A stretch of DNA of 64,000 bases from an uncultured Victivallaceae bacterium (GCA_964636325.1 CAZWRV010000011.1:7264-71263); one strand, 5' to 3'; counted from the stretch's first letter, positions 311 to 42,469 are shown. Translations and numbers: made by a program. The notes: generated by a model from the sequence alone, not told the origin.

Positions 311-1702
311 CTATTTCCTTTTCTTTCCGCAGATCTCCTTCGCTATCCTCTTAAGCGCCTCGGCCTGGAACTTCGGGTCGATGGCGATAAGCGGATTCGC
401 CGCAGAGACGGTGACCGTGGCAGTGGACTTCTTCAGTTCGTCCTCGAGCTTGCCCACGGTGCCGTTGAAGGAATATTTGCTCCCTGGCTTGATCTCCTTG
501 ACGTCTGTAGGCAGGCCGATCTTGTCCAGTATGGCGATGAACGGTTCGGGATCGAGCTCCTCGACGTTCACCATCCTGCAGGCATCCCACTTGCCGTTGG
601 CGATGAGCATGGCGGCGGCGACCGGGGGGACTCCCGCAGTGTAGCTTATACCCTGCGACTCGACCTCCTTGTAGCACTCGTGGTGGTCGGAGACCTGGTA
701 GATGAGGACCTCGCGCTTCTTCCCGTTCTTCCAGCCCTTGACGAAGTTGCCGATGCATGTCTTGCCGGTGTAGGTGGGCGCAAGCGTCTTAGGATCGGGA
801 AGCAGTGCTTTAACGACTTTCAGCGGCACAACTTCCTGGCCGGTTGTGAGCTTCACCGGGAGATGGGAGAGGAATCCGATCGTGCGCAGGACGGTGAAGA
901 CGTTGATGTAGTGGTTGCCGAAGCCCATCCAGAAGCGGATGCTGTTGGCATCCATGTTCTTGGACAGCGAGTGCAGCTCGTCGTGGCCGTTGAGGTATAT
1001 CGGGCACTCGCCTACGACCGGGAAGTCGTAAATCCTTTTTACAGAATGCGTCGGATACTCCTTCCACTTGCGGTCGATCCATGTCCAGACCTTGATGAAC
1101 TCGCGGAAGTTGATTTCGGGGTCGAAGTTGGTGGCGAAGTATCTGCCGTGCCTTCCGGCGTTGACGTCCATGATGTCGATGGTGTCGATCCTGTCGAAGT
1201 AGCGTTTCTGTGCGAGGGCGCAGTATGCGTTGACGACGCCGGGGTCGAATCCCGCTCCGAGGAGGGCGGTGAGGCCGGCCTTCCTGCAGCGGTCCTTCCT
1301 TTTCCACTCGTAGTTGGCGTACCACGGCGGCTTCTCGCAGACCTTGTCAGGCTCCTCGTGTATGGCGGTGTCCATGTATGCCGCGCCGGTCTGCAGGCAC
1401 GCCTCGAGGACCGACATGTTGACGAACGCGTTGCCGAGGTTGATGACGATCTCGGACTTAGTCTCCTTGATGAGCTTCGCGGTGGCGGGGATGTCCAGTG
1501 CGTCGAGCTGGCGGGAATAGAGTTTCTTAGTGCTGTCCTTCAGGTGCCTCTTCTTCATGACGCTCTTGATGATCTCGTCGCACTTCGACTGGGTGCGCGA
1601 GGCGATGCAGATGTCACCTAGCAGATCGTTGTTCATCGCCGCCTTGTGCGCGGTGACATGCGCTACGCCGCCCGCACCGATTATCAGGACGTTCCTCTTC
1701 AT
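311..1702 (-). CDS. carboxynorspermidine synthase/dehydrogenase (saccharopine dehydrogenase family)
   Basis: ORF 311..1852 trimmed to ATG at 1702, giving MKRNVLIIGAGGVAHVTAHKAA (Rossmann GxGxxG). Family-typical blocks GAGFDPGV, FATNFDPE, ISYTAGVP. Adjacent to nspC. About 50-aa C-terminal extension. Confidence 0.8.
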   Translation of the reverse strand: MKRNVLIIGAGGVAHVTAHKAAMNNDLLGDICIASRTQSKCDEIIKSVMKKRHLKDSTKKLYSRQLDALDIPATAKLIKETKSEIVINLGNAFVNMSVLEACLQTGAAYMDTAIHEEPDKVCEKPPWYANYEWKRKDRCRKAGLTALLGAGFDPGVVNAYCALAQKRYFDRIDTIDIMDVNAGRHGRYFATNFDPEINFREFIKVWTWIDRKWKEYPTHSVKRIYDFPVVGECPIYLNGHDELHSLSKNMDANSIRFWMGFGNHYINVFTVLRTIGFLSHLPVKLTTGQEVVPLKVVKALLPDPKTLAPTYTGKTCIGNFVKGWKNGKKREVLIYQVSDHHECYKEVESQGISYTAGVPPVAAAMLIANGKWDACRMVNVEELDPEPFIAILDKIGLPTDVKEIKPGSKYSFNGTVGKLEDELKKSTATVTVSAANPLIAIDPKFQAEALKRIAKEICGKKRK

Positions 1703-4459: not shown

Positions 4460-5487
4460 TATTTCTCCTCCTGGTCTTCGGAGTGCAGTTTCTTGGTTTC
4501 GTTTTCAACGATGGTCTTCATCTCGTCGCTGAATGTCATTCCGAGGGAGAGCCCGAGAGTTGAGAGCTTCTGCTTGATTTCCTCGAGGGACTTCTTGCCG
4601 AAGTTCCTGTATTTGAGCATTTTGGACTCCGTCTTCATGCAGAGGTCGCCGATGAGCTTGATGTTCGCGTTTCTCAGGCAGTTCTGGGCCCTTACTGAGA
4701 GCTCGATGTTGTCGACGGACTGGATCAGCGTCTTGTGCATCTTCCTCTCCTCTTCGGTGAGGGATGCGAGCATGCCCTCGTCTCCGGCCAGCGTCCCCAG
4801 GAATGGCCTCAGATGGTCCTGCAGTATCTTCGCCGACTTTTCCAGTGCGTCCTTGGGGTTGATCCTGCCGTCGGTCCATATTTCGAGGACGAGGCTGTCC
4901 TTCTCCGTCTCCTCGCCTACGCGGGCGGCTCCGACGTTGTAGCGGACCCTGGTCACGGGGCTGTAAAGGGCATCAACGGGTATGGTGCCGAGCGGCTTGT
5001 CGGGGTTCTTGTTCTTTTCGGACGGGAGCCATCCGCGGCCCTTGGTTATTTCCAGCTCAGCCCGGAAGTTGATGTCCTTGTCGAGTGTGCAGATTACCTG
5101 CTCGGGGTTGAGTATGACGACAGTTCCGTCGGTGACTATGTCCGCTCCGGTTACCGTGCCCTCCTTGTTCTTTCTGATCTCTAGATTCTTCGGAGTTTCC
5201 CCAGTGCAGTTGAGGCGTATGCGCTTGAGGTTGAGGACTATTTCCGTGACGTCCTCGACCACGTGTGGGAGGGTCTGGAACTCGTGCGATGCTCCTTCGA
5301 TGCGTATGGATGAGATGGCATGGCCTTCCAGGGAGGACAGGAGTATCCTTCTGAGAGAATTGCCGAGAGTGTGGCCGAATCCGCTCTGGAATGGGGCGGC
5401 AGTGAACTTCGCGTAGGTATCGGTGGCGGTCGACTCATCCATGTCTAGGCTTCGCGGCATCGGAAACGCGGTTGAGGATGAAAGCAT
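4459..5487 (-). CDS. rpoA: DNA-directed RNA polymerase subunit alpha
   Basis: [20 protein letters not shown] motif; 342 aa. The stop overlaps the rplQ start (TAATG). Confidence 0.9.
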
Positions 5488-6906: not shown

Positions 6907-7188
6907 TCATTCCATTCCGGACTGTCCGGTGAAGTTGAAAGGGATTTCGTGGCTGTAAGGGTGCTGCCTGGTCAACCACTGGTCGATCATGGGCTTGAGC
7001 AGATAGTTTTCCAGCTCGCTGTCCATTTCGAGATGGTGGTCGCAGTAGGGGCACGTGGCGAAGTGCTCTATGTCGTCCCTGAAGATGATCTCGAAGCATT
7101 TCGGGCAGAGAAGCAGCTTGTCGTTGTATGCGGCGAAATGCTTGAACCTGTGCTGCGCCGGGTTCTCTGTCTTTGCGAATCTGTCCAT
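6907..7188 (-). CDS. small Cys4 zinc-ribbon protein, unknown function
   Basis: CPKC...CPYC pair in MDRFAKTENPAQHRFKHFAAYNDKLLLCPKCFEII...CPYCDHHL. The ORF extends to 7266; I prefer the internal Met27 start. Has its own terminator. Confidence 0.45.
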   Translation of the reverse strand: MDRFAKTENPAQHRFKHFAAYNDKLLLCPKCFEIIFRDDIEHFATCPYCDHHLEMDSELENYLLKPMIDQWLTRQHPYSHEIPFNFTGQSGME

Positions 7189-7432
7189 GTGCGGCGAACC
7201 TGCTGTTAGATTCAGATTTCCCGACCCGCCCACTGTGACAAGCTTGAAAAGGCCGGGAAAGGTCAATGTGGTTTTTCAGGGCTGGACGCCGGAAATCTGA
7301 ATGAAATACCTTACCTTGAGTCGGTATTTCGCCACATTTTTTCCGCGGATCAGGATGTCTGAGTTTATATGACTGCCAATATACCGCGCGGGATCGGGAA
7401 ATCAAATCGTTGCGGCGTTTTAATGAATGTGC

Positions 7433-9169
7433 TCAGTAGATCCGCTTGACGGCACGCGTGGCCGTGTTGGACTCCGTGTGGCTGATAGGTATGGTGAAGG
7501 AGATGGTGCAGCGCTTGCCCTTTTCGCCGCTTGCGGAAATTGTTCCGCCGTGCGCCTCGACGATCCTCTTCGAGACGGTCAGGCCCAGTCCGGTGCCTGC
7601 CGAGCCCTTCGACGTGTAGAAGAGGTCGAAAATCTTCTGCGCTTCCTCGTTGCTTATGCCGATACCGTCGTCGGTGACGGAGATGACGATGTATTCCTTG
7701 CCCTCGTCGTAGGCGGCGTCGACGTAGATTGAGCCGGCCTTCGACTTGTCGTCGACGCTTTCCTTCTTGGTGTTGATGGCGTGTTCCGCGTTGCAGATGA
7801 GGTTCAGGAGGACCCTGTGCAGTCCGTGGCTGTCGAACTCCGCGAAGAAGGGGGTGTCCTTGATGTCGGGGTTGACCTTCAGCTCGATGCCCTCCTGGCT
7901 CATCTGCGGGACGAGCAGTTCGATGACGTCCTTGATGACGTTGTTGAGGTCGCCCATCTTCATGTTGGGCTTCTGCTCGCTGGTGAGGTTGAGCAGGTCG
8001 AGAACGAGGTTGCCGAGCCTCCTGTGGTTCTTGCTGAGGATTCCGAGTGATTCGGCGGCGAGCGCGAGGTCCTTCTCGTCTATCGCCATCTGCAGCAGGT
8101 TCAGGCTGCCGTCCAGTCCGGCGAGGATGTTCTTGATGTGGTGGGAGAGGTTGGCCGCGGTGGTGCCGGTGGCGACGAGCCTTTCGTTCTTAAGGTTGAA
8201 CTCGAGCAGCCTTATGTTTTCAAGGGCGAGGCCGGCGGTGTGGCCGATGACGGTCAGCAGCCTCAGGTCGTCCTGCGTGTATTTGTCCGTGGCGCTGGTC
8301 ATGGTCAGATAGACCATTCCGGTCAGCTGCTGGTTGACGATCATGGGCACGCACATCGTGCTTTTCACCTGGGGAGCCCCGACTGCGGTCGCCTGCTTTC
8401 CGGCGTAGGGGTCGACCGAGAGGACCGACTCGCGGTTCTCCTTGACGAAGTCGACGATCGTCTTGCTGATTTCGCTTTCCGGGATGTTCTGGATGGGGCC
8501 GCTCTTGTCCTTGCCGGCCACCGGCACGAATATGCCCTTTTCCAGGTTGTAGATGATAAGGAAGGCCTTCTCCACGGTCATTATGTTGAATATCGCCCCG
8601 AGAATCTTCTGGTGGAGCTTTTCCGGCGTTGCGGTGGACGCGATCTGGTTCTGGAACTTGTAGACCGATGTGAGTATCTTGTTCTGTTCGGCGGCTGCCT
8701 TGACGGCGTCCGGCGCCGGCTTCTCCGCCGTGGATGAGGGTATGAACGTCTCAGGCTGGAGGCTGTATGTGAGGAACGGCAGGCTTACCGAGACCGTATC
8801 CTCGCCGGAGTATATGTTGAAGAGTTCGAAGAGGGTGTTCCCGATCCTGACGGGCGTCTTGGGGGGGATGAGCGCCTTGCCTGCGACCCTCTGGCCCACC
8901 ATCCAGGTTCCGTTCGTGCTCTCGAGATCCTCGAGGAACCACTTGCCCTCCTCCCATGAGAGCCTGCAGTGCACCCTTGAGACCAGGTTGTCGTGGAAGA
9001 CGATGTCGGCCTCGTTGGAACGGCCTATGGTCTGAGTCTGGCTCTTGAGGGGTATCTCAGTACCCTTCATCGCGCCGCCGATTATCTTTATCACGAAGTC
9101 GCCGCTGCTAGCCGCGGCCGACCTGCTTTTGCTTTGCATTTGTTGAGGCATGGGAACTCCGGAAATCAT
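7433..9169 (-). CDS. FHA-GAF-histidine kinase (cytoplasmic sensor kinase)
   Basis: FHA signature (IGRSNEADIVFHDNLVSRVHCRL...STNGT), central GAF-like region, H-box LSHHIKNIL, ATPase boxes DDGIGI and GTGLGL. No TM segment seen. Confidence 0.75.
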   Translation of the reverse strand: MISGVPMPQQMQSKSRSAAASSGDFVIKIIGGAMKGTEIPLKSQTQTIGRSNEADIVFHDNLVSRVHCRLSWEEGKWFLEDLESTNGTWMVGQRVAGKALIPPKTPVRIGNTLFELFNIYSGEDTVSVSLPFLTYSLQPETFIPSSTAEKPAPDAVKAAAEQNKILTSVYKFQNQIASTATPEKLHQKILGAIFNIMTVEKAFLIIYNLEKGIFVPVAGKDKSGPIQNIPESEISKTIVDFVKENRESVLSVDPYAGKQATAVGAPQVKSTMCVPMIVNQQLTGMVYLTMTSATDKYTQDDLRLLTVIGHTAGLALENIRLLEFNLKNERLVATGTTAANLSHHIKNILAGLDGSLNLLQMAIDEKDLALAAESLGILSKNHRRLGNLVLDLLNLTSEQKPNMKMGDLNNVIKDVIELLVPQMSQEGIELKVNPDIKDTPFFAEFDSHGLHRVLLNLICNAEHAINTKKESVDDKSKAGSIYVDAAYDEGKEYIVISVTDDGIGISNEEAQKIFDLFYTSKGSAGTGLGLTVSKRIVEAHGGTISASGEKGKRCTISFTIPISHTESNTATRAVKRIY

Positions 9170-9198
9170 CCGATAAGTTAAACGCGGAGAGTGCTATT

Positions 9199-10194
9199 TC
9201 AAACATTTTTCCGCGAATCTTTCAATTGAATGTCGGGAAACTGGACGTCCCTTCCAGCGCAGTCGCCGACGGCGGCGAGGATTTCGGCGAGCTGACATGC
9301 CGCCTCCGGCCACTTCATTCCGAGGCATTCCTCCGCGAATTTCGCGACTCCTGGAAGCTTGACGAAGACAGGCAGGGGAGTGTCCACCGTTCCGGGCCTG
9401 TCCAGGACGGCCTCGTATATCGCCGCAGTTTCCGCAATGGCCGGGGCGATGCTCCTGAGGCCTGGCATGAGCTGCATGTCGAGGATAGGCGCCGCCAGGC
9501 CGAGCGACCTCGCGAGAATATGCAGGTCCAGCGAGATTTTCACGGAAGGGAAGAATTTGTTGGCGGGGCAGGGGACCAGTATGCCTTCCAGGGAAAGCGC
9601 CAATGTTTCACGGGACATCCGGCCCTCTATTTCGGTCCTGGGCACATGCCATGGGGCGGGACAGCCCGTCGCCGGAGCGGCCATCCGCGGTAGGCCGGCA
9701 GGGAGCCTTTCGGGATCGGCGCCCCTTTCCAGCATGTATCTGGCGATTTCAATGACAAGTCCGCGAGGGGCCGCCGCGATTCCGAGCTTCAGCAAGGCGT
9801 CGGCGGTCCGTCCGGCCGCGGAGTCGATTGCGGAGGAGTCCGCCCTGAATGCGGCCTCTATCAGCGGGCGCAGCGCGGAAGGTTCTGGAGGGAGTCCGTC
9901 CCCGGCCTGGAACTTGCGCCTGTATGCCCATGATATCTCGGGCAGTCCGGCCTTTTCGAGGAAGCCGCAGATGAATGAGTCGATCTGGCCGGGTGCGAAG
10001 ATCATGCCGTCCCTCGCCTCCTGCCTGAGCAGGTATTCTGCGGAAAAGGCGATGTCCTCGGACATCTCGCCGCCTCCGAAGCCGCAGTCCCTGCAGCACT
10101 CCGAAAGTCTCGCGCGGAGCTCTTCAAAGTCGTAGAATTCGCGGCGGCCGTCCCCGAGCAGGGTGACCACCGCTGCTTCACTTATTCTTATCAT
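9199..10194 (-). CDS. hypothetical protein
   Basis: 331-aa ORF whose 5' end overlaps the nrdR 3' end by 17 nt, so probably co-transcribed. No motif recognised. Confidence 0.5.
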   Translation of the reverse strand: MIRISEAAVVTLLGDGRREFYDFEELRARLSECCRDCGFGGGEMSEDIAFSAEYLLRQEARDGMIFAPGQIDSFICGFLEKAGLPEISWAYRRKFQAGDGLPPEPSALRPLIEAAFRADSSAIDSAAGRTADALLKLGIAAAPRGLVIEIARYMLERGADPERLPAGLPRMAAPATGCPAPWHVPRTEIEGRMSRETLALSLEGILVPCPANKFFPSVKISLDLHILARSLGLAAPILDMQLMPGLRSIAPAIAETAAIYEAVLDRPGTVDTPLPVFVKLPGVAKFAEECLGMKWPEAACQLAEILAAVGDCAGRDVQFPDIQLKDSRKNV

Positions 10195-10645
10195 TGCCGT
10201 GCCCCAGAATCCTTATCTCGTCTATGAACTGATCGATGTCCTTGAACTGCCTGTAGACCGACGCGAACCTGACATAAGCGACGTCGTCCAGATCCTTGAG
10301 CGCCTTCATGACCCTGTTTCCGAGTTCGACCGTCGTGACCTCCCTGTCGAAGTCGCGTTCGACTCCGGTGACGATCGCGTCGCATATCCGGTCTATTTCC
10401 ACCGGGCTCACAGGCCGCTTCCAGCATGCCTTCTCGATCCCCGCACGGATCTTTTCCCTCTCGAAGTCCTCGCGCTGGCTGTTCTTCTTTATCACCTTGA
10501 GCTCGACCGGGATGACTGTCTCGAACGTGGTGAAGCGGTGGCCGCAGCTCTGGCAGACACGGCGCCGCCGGACTCCGGCCCCCTCCTTGATTATCCTCGA
10601 ATCTATGACCTTGTCCTCAAGGCAGTAGCAGTGCGGGCATCGCAT
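10178..10645 (-). CDS. nrdR: transcriptional repressor NrdR
   Basis: N-terminal zinc ribbon MRCPHC...CQSCGHRFTTFE plus an ATP-cone (VIKKNSQREDFEREKI...); 155 aa. Confidence 0.9.
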   Translation of the reverse strand: MRCPHCYCLEDKVIDSRIIKEGAGVRRRRVCQSCGHRFTTFETVIPVELKVIKKNSQREDFEREKIRAGIEKACWKRPVSPVEIDRICDAIVTGVERDFDREVTTVELGNRVMKALKDLDDVAYVRFASVYRQFKDIDQFIDEIRILGHGNDKNK

Positions 10646-29853: not shown

Positions 29854-31722
29854 GTGACACCCAAGGAACTTGAACAGACAATAAGGACCTTGCTTCAGAG
29901 GCCGATGGCCGACACGGAACTGCGCGACCAGCTTGAGAAGCTTGCGGAGGCCGAGGCTTCCTTCTCCGGATTCACCTGGCTCTTCGGCCCGGAGCTGTAC
30001 CGCCGCAACCGCATCCTCTTCCGCCCGTTCATCCTGTCGCGCTTCAGCACATACATGGTCCTGCCCAAGTGGAGGGTCGAAGAAATAAAATGGAAAGGTC
30101 CCAAGGCGGGGATACTCGATCCCTGGCTCGCGGAAGTCGACCGCAACGACGACGTGGAGCTTTTCCGCAAGCTCTACGAATGGAAGCTGAGCGCCCAGTT
30201 CGACTGGAGGATGCGCGACAAGAAGTCGGAGACGCTCCGCAAGGAACTGCTTGCCCGCTTCCGCGGCGCGGCCAACGCCCCTCAGCGCGAGACGGTGCTG
30301 CGCAAGCTCGACCTCTGGTTCAACCTCGATGAAGCCACCGCATGTTCGATATATGAAATCGACCACCGTGCGGCAGGCCCGTTCATCCTGCGCCACCTGC
30401 CCAGCTCATGGTTCAGCGGGGAGCAGAAGCGGACTTTGTGGGGCAGAATGCATTCATTGGCCGACCAGCGCCGCGACGAGGATTTCCGCTGGCGCCTCTA
30501 CCGTCGTCAAGTGCCTCTGCCCGACTGGACCAAGGAATGCCTTGGCCTCTGCGACAACGTCAGCGATCCGTCCAAGTTGGTCCAGGAACTGCTCAGACGC
30601 CACCCTGAAGGCTATGGGATCAATCTGGCCGACGGGTTCTACCAGATGGTCCAGCGCAGGGGCCGCGACGTCTTCCCGTATGTGATGCGCCATCTCCGCC
30701 AGGTCTGGGGCGGATGGTTCGGCCGCGGCAGCTACGGCCGGATGGCCGATCTGGCACGCCAGCACGGCTGGTGGGATCTCTGGGCGGCGCTCATCCGGGT
30801 CTGCAGCGGACCGAAGGAGTTCAACAAGGAAATACATTCCATCCTGACGGACAGCAGCCTGACCAAGAAGCTTGCCGAGGAGCGCCTGCTCGCGCTGGCC
30901 GGAGTTTCGCGCGAATGGAACTGGCCCGGCCTCGGCATCGCGACGGTGCATCAGCTTGAGGAGTCCACGGCGATGCTGTTCTATGAGCGATTCCCCGACC
31001 TGCTGCGCGGCCCCTTCAAGCTGCACGTCCAGGGCAACATGTGGGGCGAGACTTATCCGAAGCTCCTCGACCGCTTCCTCGCGGACGGCGACGAGGAAAT
31101 GGTCGATCATCTGGCCAGCCGCATCATCACGCGTTCCGGCCGTTGGGGCAATGCGCAGAAGCTTCTCGCGGAAGCCGAAAAGCTGGCCGACTACTACGGC
31201 GCGATGAAGTCAGACGAGGCAGTCTTTTCACGGCGCGCCGCGAGCGTCCTGGGGAGGATACCGGCATACTCGATATGGCAGTATAATCCGCTGGTCCAGG
31301 AGAACAGGCTGGCCCGGCTGCTCTTCGAGCGCTCCGCCTCCTCGTATCTGGCCGATCCGTGCAGCGTATCGGATCTCGTGGAGGCCGCGGAGATACACGT
31401 GATGGCGCTTGCTTACCGCGCGCTGGGACTCGACGACGACCGTGCCCGCGAGCAGGCCGTCCATCATCTGCCGCTCCTTATGGGGACGCTACTCCGCCCG
31501 ATGCAGCGGGGCACGCGCATCCTGGCGTTCGGCGCGCTCGCAAACGCCGCCGTAAGCGCGGAGACCGCACGAACCGTTCTGGACCGGGCCCGCGACGCAA
31601 TGTTTCTCCCGGACCTGCGCTACCCGAAGGAGGATCTCCTAGGGCTCATCGCAAAATTGCTGCGGCACTGGCCCGAACTGCGCGGTCCCGGCGAACAGCC
31701 GGTGATCTACAAGAAGCAGTGA
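29854..31722 (+). CDS. hypothetical all-alpha (ARM/HEAT-like?) protein, 622 aa
   Basis: Long ORF with coding-like composition, Trp/Arg/Leu-rich helical sequence. No catalytic motif recognised. Ends 62 nt before the SWIM gene. Confidence 0.55.
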   Translation: MTPKELEQTIRTLLQRPMADTELRDQLEKLAEAEASFSGFTWLFGPELYRRNRILFRPFILSRFSTYMVLPKWRVEEIKWKGPKAGILDPWLAEVDRNDDVELFRKLYEWKLSAQFDWRMRDKKSETLRKELLARFRGAANAPQRETVLRKLDLWFNLDEATACSIYEIDHRAAGPFILRHLPSSWFSGEQKRTLWGRMHSLADQRRDEDFRWRLYRRQVPLPDWTKECLGLCDNVSDPSKLVQELLRRHPEGYGINLADGFYQMVQRRGRDVFPYVMRHLRQVWGGWFGRGSYGRMADLARQHGWWDLWAALIRVCSGPKEFNKEIHSILTDSSLTKKLAEERLLALAGVSREWNWPGLGIATVHQLEESTAMLFYERFPDLLRGPFKLHVQGNMWGETYPKLLDRFLADGDEEMVDHLASRIITRSGRWGNAQKLLAEAEKLADYYGAMKSDEAVFSRRAASVLGRIPAYSIWQYNPLVQENRLARLLFERSASSYLADPCSVSDLVEAAEIHVMALAYRALGLDDDRAREQAVHHLPLLMGTLLRPMQRGTRILAFGALANAAVSAETARTVLDRARDAMFLPDLRYPKEDLLGLIAKLLRHWPELRGPGEQPVIYKKQ

Positions 31723-31783
31723 ATAGTTGGATAACTGGTTACTGTGCGCGGCGATTATTCGCCGCGATTATAAAAGGAGCACG

Positions 31784-33397
31784 ATGATAGCCCTTTTCGA
31801 CTATGCGAGCCCCAGCACCTTGGAATCGCAGCGGGACCGCGCCCTGCTCGGGATTTCTGCGAACGCGCGCCGTCCCGTGCGCTTCCACGGGAAGCTGTTG
31901 CGCAACGTGCCGCTCCTTCGCTTCACGCTGCGGGCCCTCGGCGAGGCGATATGGTCCGACGACTCTTGGTCAAGCCAGGGCGAATTCGGAATGTGGATAC
32001 TCGATCCCGTCATCACGGTTCATCCGGACCGAATCTTCTTCGAGGCGTTCAGCCAGGATCAGAGCGTCTATGCGATGGTCGTGGCAAATCCTCGGATGTT
32101 CGCGGCCGAAGGCGAAGTGATTACGGGGACGACAAACGTCGACTTCAGCGCCTGGCTGTGGGGCGCCTTGAATGAACTTCGCTCCAGCCGCGAAACCTGG
32201 CTGCGCATAGGCCCCGAAGGCTTCGAGGTAAGGACGAAGCGCGCCGGAGGCCGTTTCGAACAGAAGGTCGACCTGCCGGACCACTGGGTCCGCGGATTCC
32301 TCCAGGTGACCGCCGCCATGGCAATGCCAGGGACTCGCATCACGGTGCGTCCCGCGGATCTTCTTGCCGCAATACGTTTCCTGCGGTATACGAAGGCGAA
32401 GCTCTCACCCAGGGCCCTGCGCTACGAATTCAATCCCGGCGAGGATGCGCGCATCGTCCTCGAACCCTGGGAGCATGTAGTCCCTCTGCGCGGCGCGGAA
32501 CATAATTACACCGAACCGCGGACTGTCCGTACCTGGGGGCGCCGCCGTCTCAAGCTCATCGAACCGCTACTGCCTTTCGCGACCAGCGTGGACATCTACC
32601 TGAAGGGCAGGGGGCTTCCGAGCTTCTATGCTGTAAAGATGCCCGACCTGACTTTCGTGCTCGGGCTTTCCGGCTGGACCCAGCAGCAATGGACCGACAA
32701 CGGAAGCTTCGATCTGCTCTCGGAGGCTGAAGCGCCGGAACCGGATCTGATCGACAAAGTCCAGCAGCATCTGGCCGCCAGCTTCCATGCCTCGCCGAAG
32801 GATATGGCCGCCGCCATCGGCTGTGCGCCCGATCTCGTCTGGCACGCATGCGAGCGGCTATGCCGTCAGGGACGGGCAATCTTCGACGTCGAATCCCGCG
32901 CCTTCCGCCACCGCCGGCTTTTCGAGGCGCCGGTAGACGAATCGAAGCTCTTCCCTCCCGACGAGCGCCGCGAGCGCGCCAAGGCTCTGCTGGCGGGCAA
33001 TTCCGTCTCGATCTCGCGCTGCGAGCCTCAGGAGACGCGGAAGACAAAGAAGCTCAAGAACCCCAACGGCGCACCGTTTACACGCGAGATAATCTACCGC
33101 GACTGGATTGTCTCCGGCGTCGCAGGCAAGGAGAAGGGCACCGAAATCGTGATCGGCGACACGGGCCGCATCATTTTCGGTAAATGTTCCTGCGCATTCT
33201 TCCAGGAAAACCTTATGGGCAAAGGCCCGTGCGAACACATGATTGCCCTCTTCCAAGCCAGCGCCGACTCGCGCAAGGACCTCCCAACCTCCGTCCCGGC
33301 GGCGGCAAGTCCGCCCCCGCTACCAAAGCAGGACAAGGGCAGCGAAGAGGAGAATGAGGCGGAGCCCGAGGACGGGGGCGGGGAAGAAAAGGAATAA
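31784..33397 (+). CDS. SWIM zinc-finger protein
   Basis: C-terminal SWIM signature GKCSCAFFQENLMGKGPCEHMIALF (CxC...CxH). Start moved to ATG 31784 behind AAAGGAG (31773-31779). Acidic Glu/Gly tail. Confidence 0.7.
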   Translation: MIALFDYASPSTLESQRDRALLGISANARRPVRFHGKLLRNVPLLRFTLRALGEAIWSDDSWSSQGEFGMWILDPVITVHPDRIFFEAFSQDQSVYAMVVANPRMFAAEGEVITGTTNVDFSAWLWGALNELRSSRETWLRIGPEGFEVRTKRAGGRFEQKVDLPDHWVRGFLQVTAAMAMPGTRITVRPADLLAAIRFLRYTKAKLSPRALRYEFNPGEDARIVLEPWEHVVPLRGAEHNYTEPRTVRTWGRRRLKLIEPLLPFATSVDIYLKGRGLPSFYAVKMPDLTFVLGLSGWTQQQWTDNGSFDLLSEAEAPEPDLIDKVQQHLAASFHASPKDMAAAIGCAPDLVWHACERLCRQGRAIFDVESRAFRHRRLFEAPVDESKLFPPDERRERAKALLAGNSVSISRCEPQETRKTKKLKNPNGAPFTREIIYRDWIVSGVAGKEKGTEIVIGDTGRIIFGKCSCAFFQENLMGKGPCEHMIALFQASADSRKDLPTSVPAAASPPPLPKQDKGSEEENEAEPEDGGGEEKE

Positions 33398-33467
33398 TCA
33401 GCCCATGACCGTTTTTTTGAGTTTTGAAATTGGTTCGATGCGGCTGTAGCAGTATAACTTGTAAAAA

Positions 33468-33642
33468 CATGGATCCGGAGGAGGTCCGGCGGCGAAGGAT
33501 TAGCCTAGATTGCCGCGGTGTTTCGCCGCGGTGGGGCAATGCCAGCCATACATCGCCAGGGTTCCCAACGTTCGCAACGTAGGGAAGCCCTGAGTCCAGG
33601 GCCTCGAAAGTGATCCGCCGCCGGGCCTCCTCCGGATCCATG
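33468..33642 (+). ncRNA. candidate structured RNA (possible retron msr-msd) closed by a 27-bp stem
   Basis: 33468-33494 pairs with 33616-33642 (26 Watson-Crick pairs plus one U-G that is A-C on the opposite strand). Internal hairpins at 33509-33540 and 33557-33592. Lies 354 nt upstream of the RT on the same strand. Confidence 0.4.
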
Positions 33643-33681
33643 GAAAACTGCGGGATTAGCAGTTTTGTCGGTTGGAAACTC

Positions 33682-33736
33682 GATGGAGGGCGAAGTCGTG
33701 CTGAGCCGCGGTTGAGCTTGGCTCAACCCTCCGGAA
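33682..33736 (+). repeat. 55-nt direct repeat, left copy (contains hairpin ggttgagc-ttg-gctcaacc)
   Basis: 54/55 identical to 35363-35417. Confidence 0.85.
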
Positions 33737-33826
33737 TAAGACAAAGATAGCGTCAAAGATGGTGAGTTTCAGGAAGTGCCGTATATCCGCCTCGGCGGAC
33801 AGTTTTGTCAGTGAGCAACAAGTAGT

Positions 33827-33965
33827 TTGCGCGCGGCGCGCGCAATAACACAGAACACGGCATTCCTCGTATGCGGGGTTTGCTTTTTGCGCGCGGCGCG
33901 CGCAATAACACAGAACACGGCATTCCTCGTATGCGGGGTTTGCTTTTTGCGCGCGGCGCGCGCAA
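33827..33965. repeat. array of three 19-nt GC palindromic units (ttgcgcgcggcgcgcgcaa) with identical 41-nt linkers, 60-bp period
   Basis: Units at 33827-33845, 33887-33905 and 33947-33965. Sequence lines 33841-33900 and 33901-33960 are identical. Confidence 0.9.
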
Positions 33966-33995
33966 GCTACCCGTCGAGTTTCAGGAGAGTTTCAA

Positions 33996-35294
33996 GTGGG
34001 CTTTTTTCAATGGATTAAAGAGCTTATGGGAGGTCCGCGCAGGCGCGACATCTCCCGTCTTTCCCCGTCCGAAGGGGAGGGTGCCGATGATTCCGCCGCG
34101 GAACTTGTGGACGTCTCTGGCGGCCCTTTGAAGGAGCACCACCGCCGTCTGGCCCTGCGCGACCGCCGCCTGCTTCCGAAAGTCAAGTCGGTCACGCGCG
34201 CGATGGGTTTGACAAGGCGCAAAAAGGTGATGGGGAAGGCCGAGGCGGACCGTCTTTTCAGCGGAACCTTGCGGACCCGTAACCGTAAGCTCCGCGACCT
34301 TTTGGCCGACGAGGAACAGCTCAAGCGCTACGGCCTGCCGTTGTGGAATACTGAAGAAGACCTCGCCGCGTGCCTCGGCGTTTCCATCAAGGAATTATGG
34401 TTCTTCTCCATCCACCGGCAGAGGGAGAGGCAGCCGCACTATGTCACGTTTTCAATCCTCAAGCGTTCGGGCGGGAGCAGGCTCATCATGGCGCCTAAGC
34501 GCCGCCTGAAGGCGATCCAGAGGAAACTACTGGCCCTGCTGGTCGAAAAGCTGCCGGTGAGCGAACACGCCCACGCATTCCGCCGGGGCAGAAGTGTCCG
34601 CACCGGCGCCGAACCCCACGTCCGCAAGCGCCTGATCCTGCATCTTGATCTGAAGGATTTCTTCCCTTCGGTCACTTTCGCGCGCGTCCGAGGGATGCTG
34701 ATCGCCTACGGGTATTCCTATCCGGTCGCTTCGACCCTTGCGGTCCTGATGACCGAGGCTGAACGCCAGCCGGTCGAGGAGGACGGGAAGGTGTACCATG
34801 TCCCCGTCGGGCCGCGCCACTGCGTGCAGGGTGCGCCGACGAGTCCGGGCATCTGCAATTCGATGCTTCTCCGGCTGGACCGGCGACTTGCCGGACTGGC
34901 GGCGAAGCATTCGCTTTCATATACGCGCTATGCCGACGACATCGCCTTCTCCGGCGACGTTGAACGTCCCGCCGCGCACAAGATCCGCGCGGCCGCGTCA
35001 CGGATCATCGCGGAGGAGGGATTCCTGGTCAACGCGGAGAAGACGCGCCTCATGGGAAGTGGAGCACGGCACTCCGTCACCGGGGTCGTTGTGAATCAGA
35101 CTCTTGGGCTTTCGCGCAAGGATCGGCGCCGCATGAGGGCGGCCGCGCACCGGCTTGTGAAAGGGCAGGCGGGCGCTTCCCCGGAACGCACGCAGGCCTG
35201 GCTCGACGGACGGATCGCTTACCTGCACATGCTCAACCCGCAGCAGGCGGACGCGATAAGGAATCTCCAATGTCCGACAAGGAATATTCATTGA
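33996..35294 (+). CDS. retron-type reverse transcriptase
   Basis: GTG start 6 nt after AGGAGAG. Motifs RGRSVRTGAEPH, LHLDLKDFFPSV, QGAPTSPGICN, YTRYADDIAFSG, RHSVTGVVVN. No maturase or endonuclease domain. About 130-aa N-terminal extension. Confidence 0.8.
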   Translation: MGFFQWIKELMGGPRRRDISRLSPSEGEGADDSAAELVDVSGGPLKEHHRRLALRDRRLLPKVKSVTRAMGLTRRKKVMGKAEADRLFSGTLRTRNRKLRDLLADEEQLKRYGLPLWNTEEDLAACLGVSIKELWFFSIHRQRERQPHYVTFSILKRSGGSRLIMAPKRRLKAIQRKLLALLVEKLPVSEHAHAFRRGRSVRTGAEPHVRKRLILHLDLKDFFPSVTFARVRGMLIAYGYSYPVASTLAVLMTEAERQPVEEDGKVYHVPVGPRHCVQGAPTSPGICNSMLLRLDRRLAGLAAKHSLSYTRYADDIAFSGDVERPAAHKIRAAASRIIAEEGFLVNAEKTRLMGSGARHSVTGVVVNQTLGLSRKDRRRMRAAAHRLVKGQAGASPERTQAWLDGRIAYLHMLNPQQADAIRNLQCPTRNIH

Positions 35295-35362: not shown

Positions 35363-35417
35363 GATGGAGGGCGAAGCCGTGCTGAGCCGCGGTTGAGCTT
35401 GGCTCAACCCTCCGGAA
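35363..35417 (+). repeat. 55-nt direct repeat, right copy
   Basis: 54/55 identical to 33682-33736. An extra copy of the hairpin module (ggttgagc-aca-gctcaaccctcc) lies at 35324-35346. Confidence 0.85.
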
Positions 35418-35459
35418 GACGACAAAATTACCGACAAAGATTTTCAAATTACAGGAGAG

Positions 35460-36881
35460 ATGGCGATGAGAAAGAACACGTTCGCAGTGATGTTCGGGAA
35501 CCGGGGATTCTTTCCGGAAACTCTGATATCGGGGGCGAGAAAGGAAATCGGAGCGGCGCTGAAGAAGGCCGGCTACGGGGCGTTGATGATGGAACCGTCG
35601 GAGACCAGATACGGCGCCATCGAGACTCCTGCGGAAGGTGAGAAGTTCGCAAAATTCCTAGAGCGGAACAGGGGCAGATACGACGGCGTGATCATCTGCC
35701 TTCCCAATTTCGGAGACGAGACCGGAGCGGTCGCCGCCGTCCGCGACTGCGGAACTCCCATACTCGTCCAGGCCTACCCCGATGAACTCGACAAGATGTC
35801 GATGGCGACTCGCAGGGACTCGTTCTGCGGCAAGTTTTCCGTCATGGATGTCCTCTGCCAGTACGGCATATCCTTCAGCGCGCTGACGCCGCACACGGTC
35901 CATCCGGTTTCCGCGGAGTTCTCGGACAATCTGGACGTCTTCGCGGGGATATGCAGGATTGTCAACGGAATGAGGCGATTCACGGTCGGCGCGATAGGCG
36001 CCAGGACGACCGCCTTCAAGACAGTGCGCTTCGACGAGCTCGCCCTGCAGAAATACGGGATAACCACCGAGACGCTCGACCTTTCCGAAGTTGTGCTCAG
36101 GGTGAACTCGCTCAAAACGTCCGATCCGAAGGTGAAGGCCAAGGCGGCCGTCCTCAGAAGATACGCCTGCTGGAAAGGAACCCCTGCGGAATCATTCGAA
36201 AACATCGCGAAGCTCGCGTTGGTCCTCGACCGCATCGTCGAGGAATACAAGATGGACGCACTTTCGCTGAGATGCTGGATCGAGCTGGAGAAGCTTTTGA
36301 AGCTTTCCCCATGCGTGATCCTCAGCGAGATGAACAACCGCGGCATCCCCGCGGCGTGCGAGCTGGACGTCTGCAACGCGGTGGCGATGAGGGCGCTGAG
36401 CCTGGCCTCCGAAGCTCCGTCCGCATGCCTCGACTGGAACAACAACTTCGGCGGCGAATCAGACAAGTGCATCCTCTTCCACTGCGGCCCCGTCCCTCAG
36501 AAGATGATGGCCGGAAAGGGTCTGATCGTAGACCATCCGATGTTTGCGAAGGCGCTCGGCGCCGGATGCGGCTTCGGCTGCAACACCGGCAGAATATCGC
36601 CTTCGCCGTTCACATATTCGAGCGCGAAGACGCAGGACGGCAAGCTGCATTTCTACCTGGGGCAGGGGGCTTTCACTGACGACGCCGTCCCCAGCGAATT
36701 CTTCGGCTGCGCCGGAGTCGCCAGGATCGACGGACTGCAGAAAAAACTTCAGTCCATCGGATACAACGGCTACAGGCACCATGTAAGCGTCACCTTCGGC
36801 GAACATGGACGCGCGGTAAACGAGGCCTTCGCAAGATACTTGAAATACGAATGCATGGCGCTGGACGATTTCGGCGTGTGA
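35460..36881 (+). CDS. L-fucose/L-arabinose isomerase-family protein
   Basis: 473 aa. The N-terminus FAVMFGNRGFFPETLISGARKEI and overall size resemble the COG2407-type sugar isomerases (from memory). Confidence 0.5.
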   Translation: MAMRKNTFAVMFGNRGFFPETLISGARKEIGAALKKAGYGALMMEPSETRYGAIETPAEGEKFAKFLERNRGRYDGVIICLPNFGDETGAVAAVRDCGTPILVQAYPDELDKMSMATRRDSFCGKFSVMDVLCQYGISFSALTPHTVHPVSAEFSDNLDVFAGICRIVNGMRRFTVGAIGARTTAFKTVRFDELALQKYGITTETLDLSEVVLRVNSLKTSDPKVKAKAAVLRRYACWKGTPAESFENIAKLALVLDRIVEEYKMDALSLRCWIELEKLLKLSPCVILSEMNNRGIPAACELDVCNAVAMRALSLASEAPSACLDWNNNFGGESDKCILFHCGPVPQKMMAGKGLIVDHPMFAKALGAGCGFGCNTGRISPSPFTYSSAKTQDGKLHFYLGQGAFTDDAVPSEFFGCAGVARIDGLQKKLQSIGYNGYRHHVSVTFGEHGRAVNEAFARYLKYECMALDDFGV

Positions 36882-38943: not shown

Positions 38944-39056
38944 CGCCTTACAAGAGGAATTCTTCTATTTTATTACGGACACTCATCTCACCTGAACTCC
39001 TTTCAAAACTCGGCAAACGGCTCAGCTCGGCTTCGCCCTCCGCGCACGAATTGAGT

Positions 39057-42147: not shown

Positions 42148-42222
42148 TTTGCGCGATCCGGGTTGCAAGTTCCTGTTGAAGTGCAAACTTACACGCTTGC
42201 GAATCACAGCCTGCGAAGTAGT

Positions 42223-42300
42223 TTGCGCGCGCCGCGCGCAATCAACGGAACACGGTATTCCTCGCATGCGGAGTTTGCCCTTTGCGCGCGGCGCGCGCAA
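42223..42300. repeat. two 19-nt GC palindromic units with a 40-nt linker (59-bp period)
   Basis: Units at 42223-42241 and 42282-42300. Linker and flanks are about 85% alignable by eye to the array at 33827-33965. Confidence 0.85.
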
Positions 42301-42469
42301 GCTACTCATCGAGCTCCATGCGAGTGTCGAACCCCGAGCGTGAAGCGCCTCTGGGTTTTGTCAGCGAGAAACTCGAAGTACGCCGCTCGATCCGAGAGCG
42401 GCCTAATCTAAATAATGTCGCACTCGGATCGTGCGACGTACTTGAGCCAAGTTTCAGGAGAGATGCCCG

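Follow-up and report, generated by a model that had tools for sequence, protein, structure and literature searches.

A 175-nt structured element upstream of a type XIII retron reverse transcriptase in an uncultured Victivallaceae bacterium: very probably an Mx65-like msr-msd gene

Type XIII retrons combine a clade 10 reverse transcriptase (RT) with a winged-helix/C-terminal SWIM protein (cluster 114) and HEAT/ARM-like proteins, and the msDNA producers Mx162, Mx65, Sa163 and Ne144 belong to this type (Mestre et al., PMC7736814). Inside the type, Mx65 and Mx162 represent different ncRNA structure classes (Mestre 2020, PMC7736814). In published retrons, the priming guanosine is that of a conserved AGC found at the terminal stem's inner end; its context is usually TAGC, with CAGC in Mx162 and Sa163 and GAGC in Mx65, and the terminal repeats measure about 8-30 nt (PMC6868368). 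Mx162 has a 162-nt msd made from a 241-nt transcript (PMC6868368), and the RT of Mx65 is one of two validated retron RTs in which the Asn of the NAXXH motif is substituted (Simon et al., PMC6868368). No experimental work on type XIII function was found in the literature searched. The RT of Mx65 (Retron-Mxa2, Myxococcus xanthus) has 427 aa and its msDNA 65 nt, while the terminal repeats of Mx162 (Retron-Mxa1) and Sa163 (Retron-Sau1) are long, about 30 nt or more. The RT of Mx162 is only about 33% identical to that of Mx65.

The window analysed here, i.e., the whole stretch of 64,000 nucleotides from an uncultured Victivallaceae bacterium, holds a 175-nt element (33468-33642, plus strand) that is very probably an msr-msd gene belonging to an Mx65-like retron of type XIII. 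The earlier note, made from the sequence of the window, had already proposed it as a possible retron msr-msd on the RT strand, and this is upheld: we favour the retron reading because gene content (the RT_XIII and SWIM_XIII matches), RT-linked conservation, covariation, the priming context with its invariant AGC and the strand sense of the wobble pairs speak for it. The genes and intergenic parts around the element are as follows.

29854-31722, plus strand: accessory gene 1, putative ARM/HEAT-like partner, 622 aa (conserved position upstream; named after clusters 216/259 of Mestre 2020)
31727-33397, plus strand: accessory gene 2, SWIM zinc-finger protein, 556 aa (PADLOC SWIM_XIII, 5e-147)
33430-33458, plus strand: weak candidate promoter, TTGGTT-17 nt-TATAAC, read from the sequence, which would start transcription at about 33465-33468
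33643-33995, plus strand: expanded spacer from the ncRNA to the RT gene, 353 nt, with dispersed repeats
33996-35294, plus strand: retron RT, 432 aa, GTG start (PADLOC RT_XIII, 1.5e-128; Pfam RVT_1)

In PADLOC, RT_XIII was the best model for the RT, and the other 24 matches listed were also retron RT models. The NCBIfam retron models matched at 1e-58 to 1e-63, under their family-specific cut-offs. Group II RT models were far weaker, as was the Drt2 model, which reached 27.5 bits where its cut-off is 390; since the 25 best PADLOC matches also include neither a UG nor a DRT model, a DRT/UG-class defence RT was considered and rejected. All 14 relatives found in PDB sequence searches are retron RTs, with no solved relative from type XIII among them, and the closest solved structure by sequence is the RT of Ec86 (Retron-Eco1, type II-A; E 1e-35). 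The motifs GAEPH (aa 204-208, at the NAXXH position), YADD (312-315) and VTG (361-363) are invariant or nearly so in 26 orthologues. In region X, the Asn of NAXXH is replaced by Gly, so that this Asn is substituted both here and in the RT of Mx65, which belongs to the same RT clade. The N-terminus of the protein, VGFFQWIKELMGG, aligns with the orthologue consensus MSLGxWxKSLFGG, and therefore GTG 33996 is the likely start; the start given in the database, ATG 34026 (422 aa), is probably too short, judging from this alignment. The resulting 432 aa compare with a 427-aa open reading frame at one Myxococcus locus (L032, see below), and both proteins carry an N-terminal extension, as do the RTs of Mx65, Mx162 and Sa163, while the RT of Ec86, with 320 aa, is without one.

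The 622-aa protein gave no Pfam, PADLOC, NCBIfam or PDB sequence match; a same-strand homologue stands upstream at 72 of the 80 orthologous loci, and we regard it as the putative ARM-like partner of type XIII retrons. In the 556-aa protein, residues 479-511 match Pfam SWIM (1.4e-05, above the gathering score), and a same-strand SWIM gene stands upstream at 74 of the 80 loci; in type XIII retrons this protein is the putative effector. The order of the genes (ARM-like, SWIM, ncRNA, RT) is kept in 72-74 of the 80. Mx65, as a type XIII retron, has SWIM and ARM-like partner genes, where the present locus has a SWIM gene and a putative ARM-like one, and Mx162 and Sa163 share the retron type and, with the 622-aa protein as the putative ARM-like member, the accessory gene set, whereas the effectors of Ec86 differ from the ARM-like and SWIM proteins.

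The element itself consists of the following parts.

33468-33494, plus strand: 5' arm of the closing stem (a1/a2 inverted repeat), pairing over 27 positions with 33616-33642; covariation
33498-33502, plus strand: 5' strand (GATTA) of the inner helix, pairing with 33611-33615; covariation
33503, plus strand: candidate priming (branching) guanosine, within TAGC (AGC = 33502-33504)
33512-33532, plus strand: msr hairpin, 9 bp with a UUU loop, GCCGCGGTG-TTT-CGCCGCGGT; covariation
33533-33556, plus strand: variable linker, the least conserved interior stretch
33557-33592, plus strand: msd stem-loop (predicted template of the msDNA hairpin), caggg/ccctg, ttccc/gggaa and cgt/acg; the inner helices covary
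33591-33606, plus strand: helix 6, a small RNA-sense hairpin in the predicted template region (tgag/ctcg), varying through G.U wobbles only
33611-33615, plus strand: 3' strand (TGATC) of the inner helix, pairing with 33498-33502; covariation
33616-33642, plus strand: 3' arm of the closing stem, pairing with 33468-33494; covariation

The arms of the closing stem are 27 nt long, 96% complementary and separated by 121 nt, with Watson-Crick pairs at 26 of the 27 positions and T33485/G33625 as the sole other one; the inverted-repeat search thereby bears out the stem, with its single wobble, that had been described before. Dinucleotide shuffles of the window gave no arm matches, and the arm sequence is present once only in the 64-kb window. 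The 175-nt stretch folds at -111.4 kcal/mol on the plus strand (z = -9.6 against shuffles) and at -105 kcal/mol on the minus strand (z = -8.6), and folding energy alone cannot choose the strand because both strands fold far better than shuffles. The earlier note had taken AAGGATTAGC to be entirely unpaired; this does not hold, as GATTA 33498-33502 pairs with TGATC 33611-33615 and the two covary in orthologues, so that the closing stem consists of 27 bp, then a 3-nt bulge and a further 5 bp, its inner end being the A of the invariant AGC. The length of this stem, previously thought atypical, agrees with published terminal repeats, which reach about 30 nt, and with orthologue arms of 13-33 bp. 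A second GGATTAGC, also listed as atypical, lies at 33653-33660 rather than at 33652-33659 as first given; it and a 15-mer similarity between 33439-33453 and 33649-33663 (12/15) were considered as possible motifs and are treated as chance, because orthologues have no counterpart of either. Rfam gave no match to the element (thresholds: E up to 10 for the region, gathering scores for the whole window), the scans of region and window returning only two chance matches (SAH, snoMBII-202) and one tRNA.

For comparison across genomes, 80 genome loci were retrieved with an alignment of 26 RTs, the identity of the RTs to the query being 53-72%. They come from Verrucomicrobiota, Planctomycetota, Myxococcota, several proteobacterial classes, Acidobacteriota, Eremiobacterota-like lineages and one cyanobacterium; among genome-derived RT homologues, those nearest (63-72% identity) come mostly from Verrucomicrobiota or Limisphaerales MAGs, and the host of the present element, unlike that of Mx65 (Myxococcus xanthus), is on this ground probably a verrucomicrobiotal bacterium. 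A gapless-stem script run upstream of the RTs found, in most loci, arms of 13-33 bp enclosing about 121-127 nt; the arms differ in sequence between genomes and usually stand 40-100 nt from the RT. A covariance model (R1) was built from 56 orthologous elements. It matches the window once (33476-33634, 157.8 bits), and among the 80 genome loci it gives 78 full matches, all upstream of the RT and on its strand; the two exceptions are a partial match (L007) and a locus without upstream DNA (L020). Absence of the structure from orthologous RT loci, which had been named beforehand as evidence against the retron reading, is thus not what the loci show. In loci outside model building, R1 gave 23 full matches (E 4e-30 to 2e-24).

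Because the genome loci had all been chosen through the RT, metagenomes were scanned by the core DNA pattern alone. This returned at least 120 stretches with one match each, and none in 2.9 million viral contigs. R1 confirms 78 of the 80 pattern-chosen metagenome loci that were fetched; the other two (L128 and L150) have no R1 match, L150 lying inside a long open reading frame, and were discarded as chance pattern matches. Where at least 500 nt of downstream sequence was available, a same-strand RT follows in 66 of 67 pattern-chosen loci, the exception being the chance match L150, so that confirmed elements are followed by an RT in 66 of 66. One locus (L114) that resembled a double retron holds two inverted, near-identical copies with indels and frame-shifted genes, and was set aside as it looks like a fold-back assembly artefact. 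The SWIM gene is missing at 13 confirmed elements; at the two of these that were examined (L130 and L111), the gene directly upstream encodes a homologue of the 622-aa protein (35% identity, E 5e-81). This fits a published remark according to which it is the ARM-like protein, and not the SWIM protein, with which the RT co-evolves (Mestre, PMC7736814).

Covariance analysis over orthologous loci, which the earlier note had proposed, found that the helices covary. In the MAFFT alignment of 56 elements (A2), 36 columns are invariant, all of them interior, and the RNAalifold structure of 41 pairs comprises the closing stem, the 5-bp inner helix, the msr hairpin, a two-part msd hairpin and helix 6. 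Compensatory changes occur at 26 of these 41 pairs. In a controlled count, 91.9% of cells are paired, and sliding the partners by 1-3 columns lowers this to 38-49%; the covariation score of 0.463 compares with about 0.1 for controls, and none of 500 shuffles attains any of the observed pairing or covariation measures. An alignment of 80 sequences repeats the structure (92.9% paired, covariation 0.495). All 16 modelled pairs of the closing stem show compensatory changes (54 distinct sequences), and both sides change at 4 of the 5 pairs of the inner helix, where the A-U pair adjoining the candidate priming G is kept in 53 of the 54 distinct sequences. Mean pairwise identity is 48% in the arms against 74% in the interior.

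Both interior hairpins are backed by covariation. The msr hairpin is near-invariant in sequence, with 98% of its cells paired, compensatory changes at three pairs and one invariant U.G pair, and by analogy it is likely to be an RT recognition element. Of the first hairpin as originally drawn (33509-33540), the core 33512-33532 is conserved; its outer attgcc/ggcaat extension is specific to the window, is not kept in the orthologue alignment and was dropped from the conserved hairpin. The earlier description of the second hairpin, 33557-33592 (caggg/ccctg, ttccc/gggaa, acgt/acgt), holds. With about 13 bp, and these interrupted, its stem is short for a retron, where a long stem-loop is the usual description. 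Between the two hairpins, alignment columns 66-87 (window 33533-33553) have a mean identity of 52% to the window, and the linker 33533-33556 would be where the msr's 3' end and the stop of reverse transcription are to be expected. No double compensatory change was seen in helix 6, for which support is moderate; it competes with the outer msd helix for alignment columns 125-126.

The AGC is invariant in the 56 aligned elements (56/56) and in all 79 model-aligned full-length elements, the context among the latter being CAGC in 50, TAGC in 20 and GAGC in 9. In position and context, G33503 agrees with the priming guanosines of published retrons, and the previously proposed layout with a branching G close to a1 is supported, as to its sequence context, by an AGC that is invariant at the stem's inner end. 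G33610, directly 5' of TGATC, is the predicted first template base.

With these data the element can be set beside the known ncRNAs. Myxococcus loci L028, L029, L032 and L035 carry the same element (R1 104-127 bits), and all four Myxococcus/Corallococcus loci have GAGC. At L032, the 427-aa RT open reading frame starts 6 nt after the element; its exact match is to Corallococcus macrosporus / Myxococcus fulvus HW-1 and not to M. xanthus. The matches of R1 to Myxococcus loci with GAGC and a 427-aa RT frame would indirectly suggest an Mx65-type ncRNA structure for the present element. Counted back 65 nt from the predicted first template base, the L032 sequence ends in the variable linker, and about 33544-33610 is the homologous stretch of the window; the msd here is accordingly predicted to be short, about 65 nt, like the msDNA of Mx65. 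There are differences: the priming context is TAGC here but GAGC in Mx65 and all the Myxococcus loci, the closing stem has 27 + 5 bp here against about 15-17 bp in the Myxococcus loci, and 353 nt separate the element from the RT here, but only 6 nt in L032. The CAGC of Mx162 and Sa163 is the context common to 50 of the 79 elements of this family, although the 162-nt msd of Mx162 contrasts with a whole element interior of 121 nt here. Ec86 has the same architecture of terminal repeats, TAGC, msr hairpins and an msd stem-loop.

The pairs that depart from Watson-Crick carry information on the strand, since G.U in one strand is A.C in the other. In helix 6, there are 66 G.U cells against no A.C (91 against 1 in the independent set), and in the msr hairpin 23 G.U against 3 A.C, the invariant U.G pair excluded. 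From this G.U-type variation it follows that both structures exist in plus-strand RNA. The argument for the RT strand that had been drawn from a single wobble thus generalises, as in helix 6. The closing stem shows 80 G.U against 28 A.C, a count that is biased because the locus-selection script allowed G.U there. The outer msd helix (33557-33561/33588-33592) behaves in the opposite way: it has 204 Watson-Crick cells, 1 G.U, 63 A.C or C.A and 2 others, a signal that comes mainly from two pairs, with pair 33558-33591 sharing a column with helix 6 and the related sequences not being independent; in the independent set, the counts are 276 Watson-Crick, 0 G.U, 88 A.C and 1 other. Pair 33559/33590 occurs as G-C, C-G and U-A, as well as A.C and C.A. 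As A.C in RNA is T.G in the complementary DNA, the outer msd helix looks maintained in cDNA, and these complement-sense wobbles hint at what is expected for a segment copied into msDNA. Read in this manner, helix 6 would be an RNA-sense and the outer msd helix a cDNA-sense structure, both being kept. The predicted 65-nt cDNA folds with z = -4.0.

Taken together with the retron literature, these features suggest the following course. The structural constraints on the RT strand are RNA-sense, and the plus-strand RNA would start near 33468, with any read-through continuing into the RT gene. Its ends pair (27 bp, 3-nt bulge, 5 bp), as covariation shows, enclosing the msr hairpin 33512-33532 and the msd stem-loop 33557-33592, and the end of the stem at the AGC would put the 2'-OH of G33503 beside the template base G33610. 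The RT (33996-35294) would prime from this 2'-OH and move leftward, copying the msd stem-loop and halting in the linker at about 33544-33556; msDNA synthesis from the element would in this way give a single-stranded, branched product of roughly 55-67 nt. If other retrons are a guide, msDNA and RT would work with the ARM-like and SWIM proteins, presumably in phage defence.

The spacer deserves separate treatment. The distance of the RT start from 33642, 354 nt with repeats in between, was confirmed (GTG 33996); it had been called atypical and is accounted for by dispersed repeats that recur in the window. The repeat 33682-33745 matches 35363-35426 (95%), just downstream of the RT, and the repeat 33820-33970, built of 60-nt units that each start with the G+C-rich palindrome TTTGCGCGCGGCGCGCGCAA, matches 42216-42305 (89%) and has a partial copy at 1792-1814. 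Three terminator-like hairpins lie on the plus strand of the spacer (33786-33799, 33865-33878 and 33925-33938; consensus matches only), compared with 1.3 expected for both strands of the region, and they could uncouple the ncRNA from RT expression in the source genome. As for transcription, a consensus promoter scan of 33300-34100 found no promoter-like sites and hence no sigma-70-type promoter upstream of the element, the sequence TTGGTT-17-TATAAC failing its criteria.

These observations raise the question of whether the ncRNA is genuine but the locus decaying or rewired, with the RT separated by repeats bearing terminator-like hairpins and msDNA reduced, lost or separately regulated. A spacer of 353 nt where the gap from model match to RT in orthologues has a median of about 95 nt (range 40-564 nt), made up largely of repeats found elsewhere in the window and holding more terminator-like hairpins than expected, would suit such a state. 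However, other loci also tolerate spacers of 246-564 nt, the hairpins are matches to a consensus only, the element is among the ten best R1 matches, and the RT frame is intact with all catalytic motifs, so we consider decay or rewiring very unlikely.

Another possibility is a structured cis-regulatory RNA that is not reverse transcribed, acting as a leader or attenuator of the RT mRNA or as a 3' stabiliser or terminator of the SWIM mRNA. The element is indeed intergenic, on the gene strand and highly structured, and in close relatives its 5' arm overlaps the end of the SWIM gene. Such a role would nevertheless leave unexplained why the AGC at the stem's inner end is invariant, why the partner gene is a retron-clade RT and why one helix has complement-sense wobbles only, and a leader that controls translation would poorly tolerate a distance to the RT that varies over 40-564 nt; we regard it as even less probable than decay of the locus.

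The weakest alternative, a 175-bp MITE with 27-bp terminal inverted repeats inserted by chance beside the RT gene, which the earlier note had kept in view, has next to no likelihood: long and nearly perfect terminal repeats, other small dispersed repeats in the same intergenic region and an AAAA run on both flanks speak for it, but whole element and arm occur once in the 64-kb window, about 156 other loci have one copy each, always upstream of an RT_XIII-type RT and on its strand, and the arms vary by compensatory changes below the identity of an interior conserved across phyla, which counts against it because a mobile repeat would show the opposite. We thus ruled out a MITE or REP on copy number in the window and the loci compared, and on the contrast of arm and interior identity. 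The flanks (...gtaaaaa / CATGG and CCATG / gaaaact) share an A-run alone, indistinguishable from chance, in agreement with the previous remark that there is no clear target-site duplication.

With the msr-msd reading preferred, the locus is a further member of a known retron family and adds nothing new to retron biology in that respect. The ncRNA gene completes a four-part type XIII retron locus; a previously unannotated non-coding gene is now annotated, and the RT start is corrected, at the strength given above, from ATG 34026 to GTG 33996. The ncRNA family is tightly and exclusively linked to the RT over many phyla and absent from the viral contigs searched, and the constant core of the system is formed by the putative ARM-like protein together with ncRNA and RT. 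Retron engineers might take an interest in the short predicted msDNA and its long closing stem, provided that it is expressed.

The strand-asymmetric pattern of wobble pairs is in-silico evidence of a segment that functions as cDNA. The ncRNA interior, including the stretch predicted to be copied, is conserved over at least eight phyla, with RTs about 53-72% identical. To hypothesize, the msDNA sequence might be a conserved functional ligand, e.g., a specific partner of the putative ARM-like protein, which stays with the system even at loci that lack SWIM, rather than a drifting scaffold, in a vertically inherited retron lineage; we offer this as a tentative idea that is rather doubtful at present. 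If true, complement-sense wobbles could serve to locate msd boundaries in uncharacterised retrons with no need for experiments.

The 5' arm of the msr-msd element (33468-33494) stands in a different relation to the upstream SWIM gene in the window than in related loci. In the closest Verrucomicrobiota relatives (loci L001, L003, L008 and L012) the arm overlaps the acidic C-terminal end of the SWIM gene together with its stop codon, while in the window, unlike those relatives, 70 nt separate the end of the SWIM gene from the arm. In the 60 nt upstream of the element the same four relatives conserve TTGACG-17 nt-AACAAT within the SWIM coding tail, and this motif could be the promoter of the ncRNA.

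The same ncRNA with an RT_XIII-type RT is also found without the SWIM gene, in 13 metagenomic loci (L130, L111, L081, L083, L085, L096, L113, L121, L122, L125, L126, L141 and L148). An ARM-like homologue lies directly upstream of the ncRNA in both of these that we inspected (L130 and L111; 2 of the 13). In L130 the features are as follows:

8731-8889, minus strand, ncRNA
8989-10527 and 7117-8775, accompanying genes

It was also observed that this three-part unit of L130 is embedded in a branched-chain amino-acid ABC transporter operon.

Another metagenome locus, L114, carries the element twice, as near-identical inverted copies:

1464-1620, minus strand, element copy
4522-4677, plus strand, element copy

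Small indels occur in these copies, and on their flanks the matches to SWIM and RT stand in mirror image and with frame shifts. A fold-back artefact of the assembly is the most likely explanation of the pair.

The spacer between the ncRNA and the RT gene (33643-33995) contains copies of sequences that recur in the window:

33682-33745 and 35363-35426, 64-nt direct repeat with a GGTTGAGCTTGGCTCAACC hairpin, copies 95% identical
39018-39041, minus strand, partial copy of the 64-nt repeat
33820-33970, 42216-42305 and 1792-1814, small dispersed element whose boundaries are formed by the palindrome GTAGTTTGCGCGCGGCGCGCGCAA, in copies inverted to each other
1880-1892, 33977-33989 and 42450-42462, the three occurrences of the 13-mer AGTTTCAGGAGAG

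The 64-nt repeat flanks the RT gene, with one copy in the spacer and the other directly past the RT stop, and in character it resembles a REP-like intergenic repeat. Between its palindromes the small dispersed element carries CCTCGTATGCGGGG, a terminator-like hairpin with a T-run after it; the copy at 42216-42305 is a single unit, and internal duplication has given the spacer 2.5 of these 60-nt units. Two of the three 13-mer copies lie downstream of a palindromic-repeat copy, and the one at 33977 is directly upstream of the RT start. The 13-mer may represent a shared leader or ribosome-binding context.

As for the RT itself, its database record P0001 takes ATG 34026 as the start, which gives 422 aa; the orthologue alignment favours the start at GTG 33996 (432 aa), and this longer form is also on record, as P0123. 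Downstream of the RT lies this gene:

35460-36881, gene of the L-fucose isomerase C-terminal domain family

A homologue of this gene was present in none of the 80 orthologous loci, and therefore the retron unit ends at the RT.
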